Assembly (NCBI GenBank): GCA_026395685.1
Contig: JAPLYG010000016.1
Coordinates: forward strand, 1,035 to 65,034
DNA: 64,000 nucleotides
DNA from: Candidatus Parcubacteria bacterium
GTDB taxonomy: Bacteria; Patescibacteriota; Patescibacteriia; CAIXNZ01
Direction of reading: 5' to 3'
The notes under the pieces are model-generated. The model was given only the letters and a program-made list of their open reading frames with translations, had not been told where the DNA came from and ran no database searches. The position numbers were made by a program, and so were the translations under genes. The first letter of the stretch is position 1. Each line of letters begins with the position of its first letter. Below, piece after piece: positions 11,074 to 62,214 of the stretch.

Positions 11074-11182
11074 ATTGAAACCGATTTTTATTTTCGGTGG
11101 CAAAATATGAGCTTTTAAATACGAGGATGCGGAAATGTCGTGAGGAATCACTGAAAAAAGTTCTAACAACGTCCATCCTGGG

Positions 11183-11285
11183 CAGCCTTCGTTCGCCGTA
11201 GCCCTGCTCCGCAGGGTGAAGGCGAACCTTCGCTTAAAAATTTTGCCGGTACTACGGCGAACTTCGGCTGGCTTTGGCCAGCCAT
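11183..11285. repeat. Copy B of the ~100-nt structured repeat
   Basis: See copy A; ends with GGCTGGCTTTGGCCAGCC hairpin. Confidence 0.7.
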
Positions 11286-11463
11286 AATTTTAAGCTCTGC
11301 TTGGTGTAAAAAGTCGTCCTCGTTTTGAGGGCGATTTTTTAAAACAAAAAAACACCCGTTTTGATGGTGTTTATTTTTATATAAACAGTAATAGTTAATA
11401 ATCCCTCGGTAAACAGTGGGGGGTGGTTAAATGATATAAATCATTTGCCCCCACAAAAATAAA

Positions 11464-11649
11464 TTATTTAGATTTTGGGTCATAATCTTCAGCAGCATCC
11501 CAAGCCTTAGATAAACCGCTGACAATATTGGTTATTTCCGAATCTATGGAATTTTTAATGTCATGATTCCGTCCCTTAAAAAAAGATTCTAAAATAGCTT
11601 TAAGATATGCCGCCTGAAATTCGCCCTTGTTTTCAAAGCCTAATTTCAT
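11464..11649 (-). CDS. Small hypothetical protein (61 aa)
   Basis: Short ORF followed by hairpin GTGGGGG...CCCCCAC on minus strand. Confidence 0.25.
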   Translation of the reverse strand: MKLGFENKGEFQAAYLKAILESFFKGRNHDIKNSIDSEITNIVSGLSKAWDAAEDYDPKSK

Positions 11650-11903
11650 AGTTTATTCAATTGTTAAATTACCTTAATTAAGTCGACAAATTCTTAATCT
11701 GGTCATTAATTAATACAAACATTATACTTCATTTGAATAATCTTGGCAAGTATCAGGAAAAATAGAGAGTAAAAAGACCCGAAATCCCCAAAAAACAAAT
11801 AAAAACTCCTATTTCTACAATTGACATCCTTGAGCAAAGATGCTAATTTAATTAAAACCGTGACTGAGGGACTTATGTACATTAAATCTTAAGGAGGAGA
11901 AAA

Positions 11904-45370: not shown

Positions 45371-46219
45371 TTATTGAATAGTATATTCGACTTTTGACTG
45401 CTGACCATCAGACAAAATGATGACTATCGAGTATTTGCCAACTGGCCAACTTGTAACCGGCTTAGAAAATGAAAAATTTGAAATAATATCTCCGCCCTGT
45501 TTAACCTCATCAGTTACCGGCCCGACCTGATCTCCGGTTGGCAAATAAGTCATTACAGCCTCAATCAGTAAACCGGGCGTTGTTTTGGTAATATATGCTG
45601 AAACCAGTATTTTCTCGGTCTCGGGCGCAAAAACGTCTTTTGACTGACTAACTACTCCACGCTGATCAACTTTATCACCCACTTTAACTTCCATTATTTT
45701 CGTCTCCTTGCCAGACAATTCAGGATTTAGCTGTAAAATATCGGCGTTCAACAAACTCTCTATCTGCGGAAAAGAAAATCCCTGTTTTTCCTGAGCTGGC
45801 TCCATATTAATAGCAGAAATTTTCCATTCCTTTCCTTCCCTAATAAAACTGAATTCAACTGTTTTACTCAAGCCGTTATTGGAATTTAAATTAACCACCA
45901 ATAATCCGGTGTCTTTGGTAATTTTTCTTTTGGTAACCGCATAATGGTTATAATTGGCTAGCACGGGATACTGCTCAATAAAAGCCTTGAACTGGTCCAA
46001 AGAAGTAGCTTTTTGAAAATCTTGTGCTGTCAAACTGTAGGCATTGGCAAAATCCTTATTTTTTATAAATTCTAATTGCTTGGCTGTTACATTCTCCAAC
46101 GCAGCTGAAGCCCAATACAATACTAATCCGCTAAGGAGAATAAACCCCACCAAAAATGCCAGAATTTGCAACGTCAAGATTAATTTTTTATTGGAAAAAA
46201 TTTGGAAAATTTGAGTCAT
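45371..46219 (-). CDS. Hypothetical membrane-anchored extracytoplasmic protein
   Basis: N-terminal TM then soluble domain. Confidence 0.4.
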   Translation of the reverse strand: MTQIFQIFSNKKLILTLQILAFLVGFILLSGLVLYWASAALENVTAKQLEFIKNKDFANAYSLTAQDFQKATSLDQFKAFIEQYPVLANYNHYAVTKRKITKDTGLLVVNLNSNNGLSKTVEFSFIREGKEWKISAINMEPAQEKQGFSFPQIESLLNADILQLNPELSGKETKIMEVKVGDKVDQRGVVSQSKDVFAPETEKILVSAYITKTTPGLLIEAVMTYLPTGDQVGPVTDEVKQGGDIISNFSFSKPVTSWPVGKYSIVIILSDGQQSKVEYTIQ

Positions 46220-46233
46220 AACTATAATATTTT

Positions 46234-48321
46234 TTACTGGACAGAATAAAATTCAAAATCATTTACCTTTTCCCAGTCGCGCTCATTCAAGACAGTAATT
46301 TTCTCATTGCTGATTATATATAAATAATCATTTAAATATAAAGCGCGTTTAACCCCCTGATCACTGACAGCTTTAACCAGCTTCAGTTGGTCATTTTTAT
46401 AGGAAAAGACATACCCGCCCTTGCCGCCTGGCAGGAAAAAGACCTCATACTTGGAATCCATTAAAAAGGCGTGATGATTCGTTACTGCCTCTGACCAATA
46501 TTCCTCCAGCAGATATTTTGCCAATTCTTTGGGATCAGACGGATTGGAAACATCAAAAATGGCGACTTTAACCTTATTATTTTCCTCGCCAATGCCGATA
46601 ATCTTATCTTTATTAATCGGGTGCAGATAGCCTGAATAGCCGGGGATCTTTAGTTCACCTTTTAATTCCGGCTTTTTGGGATTTGATAAATCAATCACAT
46701 AAAAAGGATCGGTCTGGCGAAAAGTAACCACATAACCTTTATCTTCAATAAATCTGGCTGAATATATCCTTTCTGTTAAGCCCAGATCCAAAACTGAACC
46801 GATAACCTTTAAATCCTTATCTAAAACATAAACATCATTGGCGCTTTCACTCGTACCGCCGCCAACCATGCCGAACCAGGATTGGCCGACTGTTGTGGCC
46901 ACGCGCAGATTGCCATTATATTCATCGAGGCTGAACTGATTCAGCGGTTTTCCCGGCACACTGCCATTGGCAGTAATTTTAAAACCATCTATCGCGATTT
47001 TAAAAATGCCTGATTGTTCCAGTTCCCGGCGATGTGCCTTGCCATAAGTTTGCATTCTATTAGTCATTTCATTTTCCAAAAGCATGCGGTCATCATCGTT
47101 AAGTGAACTGATCCAACGCTCCATAACAGTGTTTAATTCCGCCATTTTAGCCTGAGAACCCAAATCATAAGTTTGTAATTTCTGTAATTTATCAGTCACC
47201 CAGCTAGGTACTATGTCGGAATTTTCCTTGAAAAAATTAAACAAATATCTGACCATGTCCCCCGGATAATAATAAGTGACAAAAATATTGTCCTTAGACA
47301 CATAGATGATTGACTGAGAATTTGACCCGACAAAAGATACAGTTTTTTCTACTTTTCCATCAGCAGGATTTATGGCCATGACCGTAAAAGTTGCATCTGT
47401 CGGCACAATTACTTCGGGATGATAAATATCGGTACAGCTGATAGACACCCCGCTACCGTCAATTTTAAGAGGTTCATATGGACAAGGCTGGTCATATTTA
47501 ATATTATTTCTGGTAATCACATATATTTTGTCCTGATACAGCCGGCTGGTTAAAATATAGCTGTTATCACCCGCTTCTGCGGTCCATTTAACCGCTGGCT
47601 TTGCTTTGTCGGAAATATCATAGCCGTAAATTTTCCTGTTATCATCGCTAAAAACCGTTAAAATATTATTTTTTAAAAGCATTGAGCCGTTAATTTCCAA
47701 TTCTGAATCAAGCTTTAAATCAGCCGGCGGATAAGCCTTAACCAGTTTTATTCCGTTTTTAATTTCACGGGATATCGGAGGTACCGGAGCAATTTCAGTG
47801 TTTACATCTGGTGCAAACTCGATCATTGGTACTGATACCGGGATTTGCCTATAGGGCTGAAACCAGCGATCACCGGAAAAATATATTTCTTTGCCGTCAG
47901 TTTTGACAATATCAGGCTCATCAATGCCGCTAACCTGGACATTGGTCTCGGAAACTCTGTCTGCGCCAATACTGCCGGTAGACAACCCGGTGCTTTCACT
48001 AAATGAGCCCAAATCATCCAAGGCAAATTCTCCCCCACTATTTGAAGCTGGAGAAGTAAATTCACGTATTACAGTACTACTATATCCTGTCTGAGACGAG
48101 ACGCTTGCTTCTTCCAGATATTTTTTAAATTCATCATTAGAGGTAAATTTTTTAATGCCCTTTAACTGGCCGGATAAATCATTTTGACTGTTTAGATTTA
48201 AAAAACTGAAGTTCTGCTGATTGTTGTTTTTATAATTTAAAACAAAATACAGCAAAGCGCCATTTATTACTACCAAAAGCAGAATAATCACAATAAATAA
48301 AATCTTTAAATTTTTGTTCAT
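46234..48321 (-). CDS. Large secreted/membrane-anchored beta-propeller-domain protein
   Basis: N-terminal TM; C-terminal half with repeated beta-strand blades ('YVTFRQTDPFYVIDLSNPKKPELKGELKIPGYSGYLHP'). Confidence 0.5.
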   Translation of the reverse strand: MNKNLKILFIVIILLLVVINGALLYFVLNYKNNNQQNFSFLNLNSQNDLSGQLKGIKKFTSNDEFKKYLEEASVSSQTGYSSTVIREFTSPASNSGGEFALDDLGSFSESTGLSTGSIGADRVSETNVQVSGIDEPDIVKTDGKEIYFSGDRWFQPYRQIPVSVPMIEFAPDVNTEIAPVPPISREIKNGIKLVKAYPPADLKLDSELEINGSMLLKNNILTVFSDDNRKIYGYDISDKAKPAVKWTAEAGDNSYILTSRLYQDKIYVITRNNIKYDQPCPYEPLKIDGSGVSISCTDIYHPEVIVPTDATFTVMAINPADGKVEKTVSFVGSNSQSIIYVSKDNIFVTYYYPGDMVRYLFNFFKENSDIVPSWVTDKLQKLQTYDLGSQAKMAELNTVMERWISSLNDDDRMLLENEMTNRMQTYGKAHRRELEQSGIFKIAIDGFKITANGSVPGKPLNQFSLDEYNGNLRVATTVGQSWFGMVGGGTSESANDVYVLDKDLKVIGSVLDLGLTERIYSARFIEDKGYVVTFRQTDPFYVIDLSNPKKPELKGELKIPGYSGYLHPINKDKIIGIGEENNKVKVAIFDVSNPSDPKELAKYLLEEYWSEAVTNHHAFLMDSKYEVFFLPGGKGGYVFSYKNDQLKLVKAVSDQGVKRALYLNDYLYIISNEKITVLNERDWEKVNDFEFYSVQ

Positions 48322-48460
48322 AGTCCTAATTATTAATTAAATATCTTATATTATTAATCCACGAGAAAGGCACCTTAAGGTAACATTAAGCTGAATATAT
48401 TATATCATTTTTCTTTAACAATAAAAAAAGGTTATACACCGCTACAAAATTGCCGCAAAC

Positions 48461-48499
48461 AAAAAATCACGAAAGCGCTTGGACATTTCGTGATTTTTA
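48461..48499. terminator. Bidirectional terminator hairpin (ATCACGAAA-loop-TTTCGTGAT) with A- and T-runs
   Basis: 9-bp perfect stem flanked by A6/T5. Confidence 0.55.
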
Positions 48500-48519
48500 A
48501 TTTGAATTAAAGAGTATTT

Positions 48520-49821
48520 TTATAGCTGTTCATCTTCATACCATTTTATATTGCGGGAAATATACATCACAACTGCCAATATCATAAACAGAAAAACACT
48601 TCCCATCAAAAAGGCGTAATCTTCCGACTGCAAAATAACATACATAAAAATATAGAGCAAAGCCAGAATTCCGCCGATAACCAGGGCCATATTATTTTTT
48701 TTGAAAATTGCCCTGGAGTAAAGGGAAATAAGCAAGGTGGTAGCAAGGGAGGCTATTAAATAAGCTATATTGAAATTAATATTTTCAGCCAAGGACAATA
48801 ATAAGGCGTAAAAAATTACCAGGGCCAGCCCAACCAAAAGATACTGAAACGGATGAATCCTTTTCTTATAAATAACTTCCACAAAAAAATAGGCTAAAAA
48901 AGTAAGGAAGATGACTAAAATCGCATATTTAACCGAACGTTGGGTCTTTTGATAATGATCAGCCGGTATTAGTAAATCCACGCCAAATTCCGCATTATCA
49001 ATATCATAAGCTTTATCCTGCCAAATCTGAGGAAAATTACGGTTTAAATCAAGTACTTTCCAGTTAGCCGTAAAGCCTTGGGCAGTCACTTCCCGGCTAT
49101 CAGGCAAAAATTTACCCGCGAAACTTGGACTTGGCCAATCAGACTTTATGCTGACTTGAGTCTCTTTGCCCAAGGGAGAAAAATATAAATATTCACTGCC
49201 ATTTATTTTCACTTCCAGATTAAAATCAAAAGTTTGCTCAGCGCTCTCAGCCGTCAGAATAAGCGGGGCACTGACACCTGATTCAAAAAGATCCTTTGCC
49301 TTGGCGCCAGATTCAAAAGTTAGCTCTTTACTGCCGAAATTCATGACAATAGTTTCTTTGATACCTCTCATATCGGGTATGCCTAAAGAAATATAAGCGT
49401 CATGCCACTGGATATTTTCAGACGAGATCCCTAAGTCACTGTAACTAATCCCTTTAAACTGTCCGCTGATTTTCAAATTTGATTTATAGACTGCGGCTTC
49501 AAAAATACCCCGTTTAAGTATTTCCGGCTTAATTTCGCCATCTACTTTCAAAACATCAGGTAACACATAGATAAATCCTTTGATATTAGACATCTTAGTT
49601 TTGTCAAAAGTCAAATAAGGAATTGAAATTACCGGGCCGACAATAGTTTGCGCATTGCCCCATTTTTCGCTAACCTCGCTGATAGCTTCGCTCTGGCGCT
49701 GTTTTCTTTCATAAACCAGACCATAAAGCATTAAAGTGGGAATTAATAAAACTAAAATCAAACAGCCTATTACCACCAATTTAACGCTGATTGACTTTCG
49801 AAACCATTGGCTTGCAGACAT
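48520..49821 (-). CDS. CreD-like inner-membrane protein
   Basis: N-terminus aligns with E. coli CreD pattern (TM, 'YERKQRQSEAISEVSEKWGNAQTIVGPVISIPY'), C-terminal multi-TM. Confidence 0.6.
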   Translation of the reverse strand: MSASQWFRKSISVKLVVIGCLILVLLIPTLMLYGLVYERKQRQSEAISEVSEKWGNAQTIVGPVISIPYLTFDKTKMSNIKGFIYVLPDVLKVDGEIKPEILKRGIFEAAVYKSNLKISGQFKGISYSDLGISSENIQWHDAYISLGIPDMRGIKETIVMNFGSKELTFESGAKAKDLFESGVSAPLILTAESAEQTFDFNLEVKINGSEYLYFSPLGKETQVSIKSDWPSPSFAGKFLPDSREVTAQGFTANWKVLDLNRNFPQIWQDKAYDIDNAEFGVDLLIPADHYQKTQRSVKYAILVIFLTFLAYFFVEVIYKKRIHPFQYLLVGLALVIFYALLLSLAENINFNIAYLIASLATTLLISLYSRAIFKKNNMALVIGGILALLYIFMYVILQSEDYAFLMGSVFLFMILAVVMYISRNIKWYEDEQL

Positions 49822-49963
49822 ATTTTCACAATTAATAATTAGCTAAATTGAGATTCCCCCTACCAAGAGTAAGAAGACTTCTAATGTAGAATAATTCTAA
49901 AACAAAACTGAAATAAAATCAAGAACCGACCCCGCGATGCAAAGCCGGTCTTATTGATACCTA

Positions 49964-50210
49964 TTGACAATTTTCTCAAGCTATGCTAGTATACCACTAC
50001 GTCTGGGCAGGCTGATGGCAGACATTGGCTGGGCCGAGTAAGGTCGCCTTGGACCGAGTGGCAAAGCAACAAAGCAAGGCTGCGGTCAAGAAAACGTCGG
50101 AATATCTTGACCTAAGCGAAAAAAGGATCCGGCTTACTCCCTAGGCTTGCCCGGCCTTTGGAGGACCAACATGACAGGGCAACCCCGGGACTGCAAACCG
50201 GGGCTTTTTA
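49964..50210 (+). ncRNA. Candidate ~210-nt structured small RNA with its own TTGACA-17-TAGTAT promoter and CCCCGG...CCGGGG+U-run terminator; identity unknown
   Basis: GC ~55% in AT-rich genome, multiple internal stems (e.g. GGTCAAGA...TCTTGACC), no ORF, no plus-strand gene downstream. Confidence 0.35.
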
Positions 50211-50307
50211 TTTTCTACAAATTTAATGCGAATATACTAAAAACACCCCACAGAGCGGAGTGTTTTTTTGCAACCTCATAAAACTTAATATAACTTCATA
50301 CAACCGC

Positions 50308-51936
50308 TCAAGAGATCGCCGCCTTAATAAACTCTTTAAAAAGCGGATGCGGCTTCAACGGTCTTGACTTGAATTCAGGATGAAATTGTGTGGCCACAAA
50401 AAATTTATGATTCGGCACTTCAATGATTTCTACTAAATTATTATCAGGAGAAGTTCCGGCAATGCGCAAACCTTTTTCTTCCAGTAACTTCCTGTATTGA
50501 TTATTAAATTCATAACGATGGCGATGGCGTTCGGAAATTTCTTTTTGTCCATATGCTTTATAGCTGACAGAATCTTTATTTAAAACACAAGGATAAGCTC
50601 CCAAGCGCATAGTACCGCCCATTTTCTTGGTTTTAATTTTCTCAATTTGATCTTCCATAGTATGAACCACAGGGTAAGGCGTATTTTCATCAACTTCCGG
50701 AGTATTAGCATTTTCCAAACCAGCCACATGGCGGGCAAATTCAATTGTCGCCAATTGCATGCCATAGCATAAGCCTAAATATGGAATATTATTTTCCCGA
50801 CAATATTTAATAGCCTGAATTTTGCCTTCAATGCCTCTCATGCCAAAACCGCCCGGCACAATAATGCCGTCGTATTTTTTTAATTCAGCCAGTTTGGCAG
50901 GATCTTTTTCGTATTCCTCAGAATTTATCCAGCAAAGTACGGGCTGACGATTATTGGCCCAAGCCGCATGCTTAATTGCTTCAATTACTGAAATGTAAGA
51001 ATCTGACAAAGTAAAATTGCCTGTGGCAAAATATTTGCCGACAATGCCGATATTTACTTTTTCTTTGCTGGCCTTAATTACTTCCACCAATTTTTCCCAA
51101 TCTTTCAGATCTTTCCCCTTATCTTTTAAGCCAAACTTTTCCAGAATTCTATTGCCAAGCTCGTCTTTCTCAAAATTTAAAGGAATTTCATAAATAGTAT
51201 CGACATCCGGGGCTGAAATGGCGTTTCCTTTTGGTATATTACAAAAAGTAGCCAATTTTTCCTTGCGTACTTCATCCAAAGGAACCTCTGCCCGGCATAA
51301 AATAAAATCGGGAAAAATACCAGTGCTGTTTAAGGCACGTACGGCTGTTTGCGTTGGCTTAGTCTTCATTTCACCTATTTTTGAAGGTATGGGCAGATAG
51401 CTGACCAGAATGACAATAACATCATTGGGCGTTTCGGTTCTCATCATGCGGGCTGCTTCCAAAAACAAAATATTCTGATATTCGCCGACAGTACCGCCGA
51501 TTTCAATAATAGTAAAATCAGATTTTGCCAATTCAGAAGCTTTTTTAATACGGTTAATGACTTCCTGCGGCACATGTGGCACAACTTCCACGCATTTTCC
51601 GCCATATTCTAAATTCCTTTCCCGCTGAATCACGCTTAAATAAACACGACCGGTTGTCATATAATTTGTTGACAGAATATCCTGATCTAAAAATCTTTCA
51701 TAATTACCGATATCCTGGTCGGTTTCATCGCCGTCATCAGTTACAAAAACTTCGCCGTGTTCAGTCGGATTCATTGTTCCGGCATCAACATTGATATAGG
51801 GATCAATTTTAATAGCTGTAACTTTATAGCCTTTGCTTTGTAAAATTTTACCGATTGAAGCGCAGGAAACACCCTTGCCTACTCCGGACATCACGCCACC
51901 GGCAACAAAAATGTATTTGGGGGTCATATCTTCCAA
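50308..51936 (-). CDS. pyrG: CTP synthase
   Basis: 'YIFVAGGVMSGVGKG' synthetase domain, C-terminal class-I glutamine amidotransferase 'GLCYGMQ'. Confidence 0.9.
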   Translation of the reverse strand: MEDMTPKYIFVAGGVMSGVGKGVSCASIGKILQSKGYKVTAIKIDPYINVDAGTMNPTEHGEVFVTDDGDETDQDIGNYERFLDQDILSTNYMTTGRVYLSVIQRERNLEYGGKCVEVVPHVPQEVINRIKKASELAKSDFTIIEIGGTVGEYQNILFLEAARMMRTETPNDVIVILVSYLPIPSKIGEMKTKPTQTAVRALNSTGIFPDFILCRAEVPLDEVRKEKLATFCNIPKGNAISAPDVDTIYEIPLNFEKDELGNRILEKFGLKDKGKDLKDWEKLVEVIKASKEKVNIGIVGKYFATGNFTLSDSYISVIEAIKHAAWANNRQPVLCWINSEEYEKDPAKLAELKKYDGIIVPGGFGMRGIEGKIQAIKYCRENNIPYLGLCYGMQLATIEFARHVAGLENANTPEVDENTPYPVVHTMEDQIEKIKTKKMGGTMRLGAYPCVLNKDSVSYKAYGQKEISERHRHRYEFNNQYRKLLEEKGLRIAGTSPDNNLVEIIEVPNHKFFVATQFHPEFKSRPLKPHPLFKEFIKAAIS

Positions 51937-53336: not shown

Positions 53337-53754
53337 AGGATTTTTAAAAATTATTAATCAAAAATACCATTTTATTATAACCTATTTTACTAACCGCATC
53401 AATTGTTGATAAGTCTTTTATTTTGCTGTAAACTATTAAAAAACAAATGCCTTTTAAAAATCCATTATTTTAATCCAATTATACTTAAACTCTGAGTAAA
53501 GAGCAACCTCACAAATATAATATACAATAAATGCTTTTATCTTGACAAAATAACTATTTTATGTCGTAAGTCAATATTCGCAAAAAATGACTTGACAATT
53601 ATTTACGAAGTTGCTAAGGTATCATATGGTTTAAATACAGAGGCCAAAGAGGCCGCGTACCTTTTTAATATATATAAGGCAAGGGGAGGCAAACAAAGAT
53701 TCAAAACAGCTCTGCATTGCGGAGCCAAACCGTCTGAAAAAGGAGACCTGACAG

Positions 53755-54924
53755 ATGAAGAAAATCACCGCATTCACGGCCATGGCGGTCATGATTCTCA
53801 TGACCATGCTCTCGGGCTGCACCAAGCCCGCCCCCGGCAACGGCAACAACCCCATCGGCGCCCAGCCCAACGACCCCCGCGCGTCCGAAATGACCGTCTC
53901 GTGGACCTACGACACCCCCGGCTCGCTCAAGTGGGAATCCGGAGACCTGACCCCCATCAAGGACAGCGACGACGGCCTCTGGAAAATGCTCTACGACCCG
54001 GCCGGCGTCAGCCCGACCGCCATTACCCCCGGCTTTCCGCCGGGCTACGTGGCCATCGGTGGTGACGCGATCAACCCGACCTGCAATAACCCGTACAACC
54101 CCGCGTGTCGGACGGACATCTCGTCCAACTGCACCAACGGCGTCTGCACGGCGTCCGTGAATCTGCCCATCGGCTCCTGGAACGGCATCTGGTTCTGGTA
54201 TGATGGTCAGGTACGCGTCGACCACATCACGCTTTCCGCCGGGACCCAGTCCTGGCCGCTCGTCAACTACTCCGTGATCGCCGGCGATACCGCTCCGACT
54301 ACCAATCCGCTGCACCAGTCCTGGGTCGCAGCCTGTGTCCGCATCGACAGACCCACGCCCACGACCATCGACGTCAACCGCGACGTCGCCAATAACGCCA
54401 GGTGCCAGGAAGTGATCTACAACATCGAAATCTGGGCCAACGGCGACTCCAGCGTGAACGTCCTCGACGACAAGTTCGTTCCCTGGAACGGTCTGCAGGC
54501 TCACGAAGGAGACATGAAGATCAAGTCAACGCTTCTGCCTCCGACCGTACAGTCCGGCAGTACCCTATTCCCGAGAATCGTGTGGAACACCAACGCGTAC
54601 ATCCACCGCATCTCGAGCGTGGCCGCTTCGAGTTCCTGGTGGCTCGCCTTCTACAGCCATGACCGGGGCGACACCGCGCCGCCCAATCTGCTGTCCCCGA
54701 TCCACGGCGGCGTGTCCATTCGCACCTACCGCTACGGCGCCGGCTGGGCCATCCCGACCACGCCCAACTGCACCACCGAGCTCCAGAACATGATCAACCT
54801 GAATACGATCAACCCGCTGCTCGAGCCATTCTACGTCCTGCAAGTGACGGGTATCAACACCACGTCCAACTGCGTCACCCAGGGCGTGGACACCCGAAGC
54901 CAGATCTTCGGATTCGCAAATTAG
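53755..54924 (+). CDS. High-GC lipoprotein of unknown function (lipobox LSGC), Cys/Trp/Pro/Thr-rich, compositionally foreign
   Basis: RBS AAAGGAG 9 nt upstream; 'MKKITAFTAMAVMILMTMLSGC' signal; GC ~65% with third positions almost all G/C versus ~33% GC flanks; two hairpins after stop. Confidence 0.6.
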   Translation: MKKITAFTAMAVMILMTMLSGCTKPAPGNGNNPIGAQPNDPRASEMTVSWTYDTPGSLKWESGDLTPIKDSDDGLWKMLYDPAGVSPTAITPGFPPGYVAIGGDAINPTCNNPYNPACRTDISSNCTNGVCTASVNLPIGSWNGIWFWYDGQVRVDHITLSAGTQSWPLVNYSVIAGDTAPTTNPLHQSWVAACVRIDRPTPTTIDVNRDVANNARCQEVIYNIEIWANGDSSVNVLDDKFVPWNGLQAHEGDMKIKSTLLPPTVQSGSTLFPRIVWNTNAYIHRISSVAASSSWWLAFYSHDRGDTAPPNLLSPIHGGVSIRTYRYGAGWAIPTTPNCTTELQNMINLNTINPLLEPFYVLQVTGINTTSNCVTQGVDTRSQIFGFAN

Positions 54925-55006
54925 GGGTTGCCTCCCCCTACTTGACCAAAAGCCCCAGGTACTTCGGTACTTGGGGCTTTAAAATTGATTTTTTAGGCTA
55001 ATATCT

Positions 55007-61936: not shown

Positions 61937-62091
61937 ACTCTAAACAACAAAAACTTTTACTAATCCTAAAAAGTCTTAGATCAAAGCTGGCGCTGATCCG
62001 CCGACAGGTTCTTGCAGATAAAAAAGGGCAGGAATCCGTTGATGCGCAAAAGCAGGCAGCTGATCTGCGGGCAAAAATAAAAAATCTTTAA
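61933..62091 (+). CDS. Small cationic amphipathic-helix peptide (52 aa), translationally coupled (ATGA overlap)
   Basis: ATG overlaps upstream stop; 'KLLLILKSLRSKLALIRRQVL'. Confidence 0.3.
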   Translation: MNSKQQKLLLILKSLRSKLALIRRQVLADKKGQESVDAQKQAADLRAKIKNL

Positions 62092-62100
62092 CCAAAAATT

Positions 62101-62199
62101 ATGACCTCAAACAAACAAAATTGCCAAAAAATCGCCAAAGTTCTCAGCAAATTCAAAACCAAACTGATGAAAATAAGAACTAAGCTACTTAATTCTTAA
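62101..62199 (+). CDS. Second small cationic peptide (32 aa), paralog-like to the 52-aa peptide
   Basis: 'IAKVLSKFKTKLMKIRTKLL' shares pattern with preceding peptide. Confidence 0.25.
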   Translation: MTSNKQNCQKIAKVLSKFKTKLMKIRTKLLNS

Positions 62200-62214
62200 A
62201 TATAATATAAATAT

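Follow-up and report, generated by a model that had tools for sequence, protein, structure and literature searches.

The gap between creD and pyrG in the 64,000-nt stretch of Candidatus Parcubacteria DNA analyzed here (termed the window) very likely holds a genuine non-coding RNA gene of a new family, as judged by comparison with related loci. Our preferred reading of positions 49964-50214 (plus strand), i.e. a separate gene whose product, a structured non-coding RNA of ~215 nt, belongs to an undescribed, narrowly distributed family and acts as a decoy by means of a conserved module, is moderately probable as a whole. Judging from the shared sequence blocks, the family is under selection in at least three species. 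A preliminary description of this DNA had proposed an orphan plus-strand unit, possibly a lineage-specific sRNA, and our results agree with it: the unit has its own promoter and terminator, matches no known family, and occurs in three related species of Parcubacteria.

Genomic context of the RNA gene

An ORF-poor gap (49822-50307) separates creD from pyrG (Table 1). The preliminary description placed the RNA in a convergent gap between two minus-strand genes, which is correct for pyrG; the RNA gene is divergent from creD, not convergent with it. On the creD side, a minus-strand terminator-like hairpin and a promoter-like site (49894-49950 together) insulate creD from transcription across the RNA element. 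On the other side, the bidirectional terminator at the end of pyrG, composed of an A-run, a hairpin, and a T-run, doubles as a back-stop for the RNA gene; its AAAAACACCCC...GGAGTGTTTTT sequence is invariant in the window and in the two related loci L086 and L087. The mechanical ORF of pyrG starts at a TTG codon (542 aa; window 51927-51936), and the homologs and the database PyrG protein begin nine bases downstream, at MTPKY (539 aa). The closest relatives of this PyrG are all Patescibacteria/CPR MAGs.

Table 1 Features of the creD-pyrG locus, with positions in the window.
Feature	Position	Strand	Evidence
creD	48520-49821	minus	Pfam CreD, E = 4e-159
Promoter-like site ahead of creD, downstream of the terminator-like hairpin	49922-49894	minus	Promoter scan
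Terminator-like hairpin ahead of creD	49950-49924	minus	Terminator scan
Sigma-70-type promoter: TTGACA (49964-49969), 17 nt, TG-extended TAGTAT (49987-49992)	49964-49992	plus	10/12 match plus TG
5' hairpin P1 region, CGUCU...GGCUGGGCCGAGU	50000-50039	plus	MFE and centroid folds (hairpin), RNAalifold
Block B, GGUCGCCUUGGACC, small hairpin GGUC/GACC	50042-50055	plus	Identical in L087
Mini-hairpin GCA-AGGC-UGC, hairpin C (GGUCAAGA / UCUUGACC, 13-nt loop), then conserved ACCUAAGC	50074-50117	plus	Covariation with L086
Hallmark module	50134-50182	plus	Pattern, covariation, covariance model
Intrinsic terminator: CCCCGG (50183-50188), 9-nt loop, CCGGGG (50198-50203), CUUUUUAUUUU	50183-50214	plus	dG -11.7 kcal/mol
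Bidirectional terminator at the end of pyrG (A-run, hairpin, T-run)	about 50236-50266		Minus-strand terminator 50257-50244 in scan
pyrG	50308-51936	minus	CTP synthase domains

The proteins encoded nearby are CreD, a beta-propeller protein, a DUF4864 protein, and a DUF4412/LolA-like protein. The genes for the first three (the beta-propeller protein being PF09826) form a block at 45371-49821, a window-specific insertion that separates the RNA gene from the DUF4412/LolA-like gene; the orthologous pyrG-L27 interval of L086 and L087 has no creD block, and these two genes are immediate neighbors there. This pyrG-L27 interval is a hotspot for changes in gene content, and almost every relative carries a different set of genes in it. 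Upstream of L9-pyrG, some of the close relatives (L172, positions 43-288; P0003 contig) have a HicA-toxin-like gene that the window lacks.

Homologs and distribution

Homologs of the RNA gene, identically placed and oriented beside pyrG, were found in L086 and L087 (the latter being the same as L088, from two different metagenomes), so that the comparison base consists of three independent sequences. The PyrG proteins of L086 and L087 are 94% and 91% identical to that of the window, respectively, and those of same-clade relatives 91-96%. In both loci, the gap after pyrG that holds the RNA gene measures 540-640 nt, and nhmmer matched the window element to L086 with E = 5e-4 and to L087 with E = 4e-5. 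The RNAs are ~215 nt (window), ~325 nt (L086), and ~455 nt (L087) long, the longer ones having extra 3' domains, with whole domains gained or lost. The three RNAs share one block order, colinear from P1 through block B, hairpin C with ACCUARGC, and one or two modules to the terminator. Since the fourfold-degenerate sites of pyrG show only 40-45% identity among the window, L086, and L087, neutral sites are essentially saturated, and the shared RNA blocks therefore point to selection. Conservation beside pyrG, which had been suggested as a check, was borne out by these colinear homologs in two other species, with their conserved promoter and terminator and their compensatory changes.

Long-range helices were noticed in the two longer RNAs. 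In L086, a ~17-bp helix joins about 2175-2158 with about 2010-1990 (minus strand), and in L087, GACCUAGC pairs with GCUAGGUC (about 2795-2787 with about 2570-2562, minus strand); the window copy has neither. Because these helices enclose the module region, the longer RNAs may differ in global fold.

At the post-pyrG locus, the one to which these absences refer, the RNA gene is missing from the equally close relatives L091, L171 (same strain as L091), and L172, as well as from a sister clade of five loci (L081, L082, L084, L089, and L090); in all of these, protein genes directly follow pyrG. Among 160 distant CPR pyrG loci (80 from genomes and 80 from metagenomes), no homolog was retrieved by blastn, nhmmer, pattern, or covariance model.

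Promoter and terminator

The TTGACA-17-TAGTAT promoter of the preliminary description is present, near-consensus, and kept at the orthologous site in L086 and L087. Its score alone could arise by chance, as 1.1 kb contained 2 promoter-like sites and shuffles 2.5 ± 1.8; TTGACAA, the TG-extended -10 element (TG.TA), and a CGTCT ~7-8 nt past the -10 do not vary among the window, L086, and L087. We infer a transcription start around 49999-50000, just before CGUCU.

The clean intrinsic terminator reported earlier was confirmed as a hairpin followed by a T-run, and it is conserved in both homologs, where the CC..GGGG stem ends and TTTTTAT are retained. It was missed by the scan tool, whose loop limit is 3-8 nt, because the actual loop measures 9 nt. 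As no A-tract lies upstream, this terminator acts on the plus strand only. Its hairpin (50183-50203, CCCCGG GACUGCAAA CCGGGG) resembles the 5' half of the second L087 module; the similar stretch of that module is CCUGCGG ACUGCCCAA CCCG (about 2666-2640, minus strand). From this resemblance, a second module copy may perhaps have been converted into the terminator in the short RNA of the window.

Composition and structure of the RNA body

The RNA body (~215 nt) has 56% GC, and the segment 50000-50199 has 57%, close to the ~55% first reported; the background of ~33% reported with it has to be corrected, the window mean being 37.4% (sd 6.7%, 150-nt windows). The unit had also been said to contain no ORF. 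Mechanical ORFs (39 and 44 aa) are present, but none of them is conserved.

In L086 and L087, the 5' hairpin P1 spans 29 nt, pairs cleanly around a UUUG or UUCG loop, and is seen in both MFE and centroid folds; it aligns without gaps between these two RNAs with three consecutive double-compensatory pairs (U-A/G-C, G-C/A-U, and C-G/U-A). In the P1 alignment, pairs 19-37, 20-36, and 21-35 vary on both sides, and pair 23-32 is G.U in two sequences and A-U in one. RNAalifold recovers P1 independently, and the P1 pattern occurs, among the searched loci, in L086, L087, and L088 only. The P1 of the window is less regular, with an 11-nt insertion or duplication, a G.G mismatch, and imperfect pairing. 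Block B (GGTCGCCTTGGACC as DNA) is identical at 14 of 14 positions between the window and L087, against the 40-45% seen at pyrG fourfold sites. Hairpin C shows two compensatory pairs between the window and L086, 114-137 (C-G to U-A) and 117-134 (G-C to A-U). The motif ACCUARGC (ACCTARGC as DNA) is found in all three RNAs, and GGCTTACTCC is another conserved block.

Of the two stems quoted in the preliminary description, GGTCAAGA (50084-50091) / TCTTGACC (50105-50112) is real and covaries with L086. The other, GUCUG (50001-50005) / CAGAC (50019-50023), exists in the window only; it is not conserved because CAGAC sits in the 11-nt insertion that the homologs lack. Folding, which had been named as a further check, gave a divided result, in that the L086 and L087 RNAs fold better than shuffles (z = -3.75 and -3.3, respectively) but the MFE of the whole window RNA does not (z = -1.0). 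The whole-RNA MAFFT/RNAalifold alignment is reliable only in P1, block B, hairpin C, and the module, and the long-range pairs that it suggests (columns 3-6 with 380-383) are probably artifacts.

Other stretches of the window drew attention for their composition or lack of ORFs. A second ORF-free gap of 830 nt (11074-11903) contains an island of 59% GC (about 11105-11340, plus strand) and ends in two terminator-like hairpins, GTCGTCCTCGTTTTGAGGGCGATTTTTT and then AAAAACACCCGTTTTGATGGTGTTTATTTTT; it has no Rfam match even at E<1 and may be another unannotated structured RNA. The 1.3-kb GC-rich stretch at 53681-55001 is open on both strands. Its plus-strand ORF 53755-54924 (389 aa) has a lipoprotein-like signal (MKKITAFTAMAVMILMTMLSGC) at its start and no Pfam match, and in L081, L082, and L089 the corresponding position holds an unannotated gene of 363-378 aa. 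Another ORF-free gap, at 61951-62214, has a local GC peak of 52% near 61976.

The conserved module

The hallmark module of 45-50 nt has the order (U)UA, CUCC, 5' strand of the inner stem, loop (Y)GCCC-RR, 3' strand of the inner stem, GGRG, GAC, a linker of 5-11 nt, and GGGY(AA). In the window, its hairpin S1 consists of an outer stem CUCC (50137-50140) / GGAG (50160-50163) and an inner stem AGGC (50143-50146) / GCCU (50154-50157); the loop bears GCCC (50149-50152), and GAC, the linker, and GGGCA (50177-50181) lie downstream. The window and L086 have one copy of the module each, that of L086 being a GGGGGAC variant, and L087 has two tandem copies. The module pattern matched once in the window and in 0 of 100 shuffles; outside these RNAs, no match to it was obtained among 186 other loci (about 1.3 Mb), those with the module being L086, L087, and L088. 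A covariance model of the module (R1) matches with 40 bits (E = 4e-8), and an Infernal search with it returned the known copies only.

In a four-copy alignment, in which a placeholder N after GCCC in the window copy mends a register shift of one nucleotide, 88% of the S1 cells are paired, as compared with 28-62% when the partner strand is slid. Six of the 10 S1 pairs are changed on both sides, and the observed values were reached by 5-8 of 500 shuffles. In all four copies, S1 is the MFE structure of the segment, with GCCC unpaired in the loop. This GCCC could possibly pair with the downstream GGGY (GGGC in the window), giving an H-type pseudoknot with a second stem, S2; S2 is putative because it never varies, apart from one G.U.

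Functional strand

The window copy folds better in antisense than in sense (z = -3.3 vs -1.0), L086 favors sense (z = -3.75 vs -1.96 in antisense), and L087 is neutral; folding energy does not decide the functional strand. On the sense strand, the proposed helices comprise 123 pairs with 7 G.U and 0 mismatches. The plus strand is supported by the conserved promoter, by the U-tracts that follow the terminator hairpins in sense only, and by the G.U pairs, because these 7 pairs would become C.A mismatches on the antisense strand.

Comparison with known RNA families and elements

An Rfam/Infernal scan had been proposed, and it matched the element to no known family. At the gathering threshold, Rfam 15 detected five tRNAs in the whole window and nothing else. 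With the threshold relaxed to E<10, both strands of the element, L086, and L087 (three versions of the RNA, in a search space under 1 kb) gave chance-level matches only, and ARAGORN found no tRNA or tmRNA at the element in the window, L086, or L087. The earlier failure to recognize RNase P RNA, SRP RNA, tmRNA, or tRNA in this sequence is thus upheld, with Rfam empty even at E<10 and ARAGORN negative.

Bacterial housekeeping RNAs have recognizable architectures. The 6S RNA is rod-like, with its ends paired around a large central bubble, binds the sigma-70 holoenzyme, and templates pRNA synthesis. RNase P RNA has a P4 helix formed from CR-I (GAGGAAAGUCCGG) and CR-V (ACAGAAxCCGGCUUA) and a P1 helix joining its 5' and 3' ends, SRP RNA has a helix 8 that is capped by a GNAR tetraloop and interrupted by conserved loops, both symmetric and asymmetric, and tmRNA combines a tRNA-like domain with a tag reading frame. 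All four RNAs close with a terminal helix between the 5' and 3' ends. The earlier suggestion of a 6S-like RNA did not hold: L086 and L087 have a local hairpin at the 5' end and neither a closing helix nor a central bubble, the RNAs form a row of hairpins of variable total length (215-455 nt), and RF00013 and related models are unmatched. For SRP RNA, no model matched even at E<10 and the terminal helix is missing in L086 and L087. For RNase P RNA, GAGUAAGGUCGCC and CCGGCUUACUC recall CR-I and CR-V only loosely and by eye, are unconserved in L086, and gave no model match; tmRNA had neither an ARAGORN nor an Rfam match in the window, L086, or L087. These four RNAs were excluded because the model searches are negative and the 5' end forms a local hairpin.

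Other candidates found no support. A Csr-type sponge is not indicated by the number of GGA motifs (26 observed vs 22.5 expected, z = 1.1) or by any Rfam Csr/Rsm model; GGAC is mildly enriched (z = 3.6). CsrA was not detected by tblastn with the E. coli and B. subtilis queries in the window and about 1.3 Mb of loci, and Hfq was not detected in the window and the locus sequence searched, which is a limited sample. The layout does not suit a riboswitch or other cis-regulatory leader, since in each of the three loci the next gene on the plus-strand side is the convergent pyrG, encoded on the other strand; no known aptamer class was matched. For a repeat, a DGR template, or a mobile element, the window contains no second copy and no adjacent mobile-element genes. 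As to a phage origin, blastn found no match in a phage collection, and the pattern matches in viral contigs are chance matches inside coding sequence. In the literature, we found no description of CPR/Patescibacteria sRNAs fitting this RNA.

Discussion

The RNA is likely to act in trans rather than in cis, as none of the loci has a same-strand gene after it. It has the generic features of a trans-encoded sRNA, i.e. its own promoter, a Rho-independent terminator, a non-coding body, and conservation between species. It would be abundant and stable, stability being suggested by the 5' hairpin and the terminator, and its function would reside in the conserved module. The module, possibly folded as an H-type pseudoknot, might bind and titrate a protein or the 30S subunit by mimicking a translation-initiation region. 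Titration is preferred because a Shine-Dalgarno-like GGRGG sits in the CUCC/GGAG helix and the module copy number varies, these two features being the sole source of the decoy idea. As a specific mechanism, a decoy or sponge is tentative and has a rather low probability. A more elaborate form of it, in which a CPR-specific RNP or decoy with a tandem-capable pseudoknot module sequesters the anti-Shine-Dalgarno end of the 30S subunit or a translational repressor, or in which the module is instead a new ligand-binding pseudoknot class, is unlikely.

Several known systems resemble the RNA in part. Like CsrB, RsmY, and RsmZ, it is a stand-alone structured sRNA with its own terminator and a Shine-Dalgarno-like GGRGGAC, in 1, 1, or 2 copies depending on the species; unlike in those RNAs, GGRGG lies in the 3' strand of a stem or a possible pseudoknot rather than in hairpin loops, the motif copies number 1-2 rather than 5-20, and GGA is not enriched. 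With H-type pseudoknots such as preQ1-I/II, SAM-II, guanidine-III, and the rpsO/S15 operator, the module shares its compact size (~45-50 nt), a loop GCCC complementary to a downstream GGGC, an embedded Shine-Dalgarno-like sequence, and covarying stems around invariant nucleotides. In contrast to these aptamers and operators, it is not located in a 5' UTR, no gene follows it, its pseudoknot stem has no covariation support, and neither its sequence nor a covariance model matches their families. The window copy recalls 6S RNA in being ~200 nt long, GC-rich, and stand-alone, with a strong promoter, but it lacks the closing helix and the bubble and leaves RF00013 unmatched. Weinberg et al. in 2017 reportedly assembled motif collections of GC-rich intergenic structured RNA candidates from AT-rich genomes by comparative genomics. 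The present RNA is similar in being a GC-rich intergenic island with covarying stems in an AT-rich genome, and differs from those of their families now in Rfam 15 in having no match there and in its distribution, i.e. three species of one Parcubacteria clade.

Other explanations have to be weighed against a titrating RNA. In a base-pairing sRNA, an unpaired seed (e.g. the GCCC-RR loop, ACCUARGC, or UACUCC) would pair with mRNAs encoded elsewhere and the hairpins would serve for stability only. The layout is the classic one of trans-encoded sRNAs (own promoter, 5' hairpin, and intrinsic terminator) and short conserved single-stranded motifs are present, but what is conserved is a module with covarying stems and not one linear seed, a varying module number is more typical of titrating RNAs, and the limited sample of sequence searched contains no Hfq homolog. 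Such an sRNA is rather doubtful, and seed pairing and titration by a decoy are about equally plausible. If the module were a small-molecule aptamer, with an H-type pseudoknot as in preQ1, SAM-II, or guanidine-III and one or two copies on a stand-alone RNA, then its size, its possible topology, the strict GCCC, GGRGGAC, and GGGY around covarying stems, and the tandem copies in L087 would be accounted for; with no same-strand gene after the RNA in any locus, and so no expression platform, no Rfam riboswitch match, and a putative pseudoknot stem, this is very unlikely. Very little probability likewise attaches to function on the minus strand, as a cis-acting leader or attenuator of creD or as a structured 3' UTR or read-through product of pyrG. 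It draws on the better antisense fold of the window and on the minus-strand terminator-like hairpin between the element and creD, and it is opposed by the far better sense fold of L086, by the conserved promoter and U-tract terminators found in sense only, by the G.U pairs, by the promoter-like site that creD has of its own past the terminator-like hairpin, and by the neighbor in L086 and L087, which is the DUF4412/LolA-like gene and not creD.

A diverged housekeeping RNA (6S, SRP/4.5S, RNase P RNA, or tmRNA), unrecognized by the Rfam models in CPR, where RNAs are often atypical, would fit the strong promoter and GC-rich body, as in stable RNAs, and the loose likeness to CR-I and CR-V; the negative searches of three versions of the RNA, the local 5' hairpin in L086 and L087, the size range with gain and loss of domains, and the absence at the locus in close relatives make it highly improbable. 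We also considered whether the variable region after pyrG might hold a remnant (e.g. of a larger RNA gene or a mobile element) that is decaying or has lost its function, with the window copy as a truncated relic. That copy is indeed the shortest, with a degenerate P1 (G.G mismatch and 11-nt insertion) and an unremarkable fold, at a variable locus where close relatives have no RNA gene; however, the core blocks, promoter, and terminator have all been kept despite saturated synonymous sites, and the window shows no repeats or second copies and no adjacent mobile-element genes, which leaves a remnant hardly probable. Least probable of all is a small protein translated from the 36-aa ORF that starts at the AUG 5 nt after a GGAGGA (50160-50174). 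The Shine-Dalgarno-AUG spacing is good in the window and a 21-aa peptide resembles L087, but this ORF, the sole one with a Shine-Dalgarno sequence and AUG, extends across the terminator, in L086 a start codon is missing and a stop immediately follows the module, the two L087 modules lie in different frames, and the 21-aa similarity coincides with the module nucleotides.

The CPR/Patescibacteria represent a large part of bacterial diversity and are mostly uncultured; to our knowledge, almost nothing is known of their regulatory RNAs. The RNA gene described here is a solid but narrow candidate, so far from three species of uncultured Parcubacteria. With its covarying, copy-number-variable module, it provides a concrete handle, i.e. 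a covariance-model seed for CPR and a target in metatranscriptomes from groundwater and sediment. If the module does mimic a Shine-Dalgarno region or form a pseudoknot, it would point to a lineage-specific mode of translational control, and the more elaborate decoy reading, if true, would mean that these episymbionts, with their reduced genomes, possess an RNA for global control of translation that is unrelated to Csr/Rsm.
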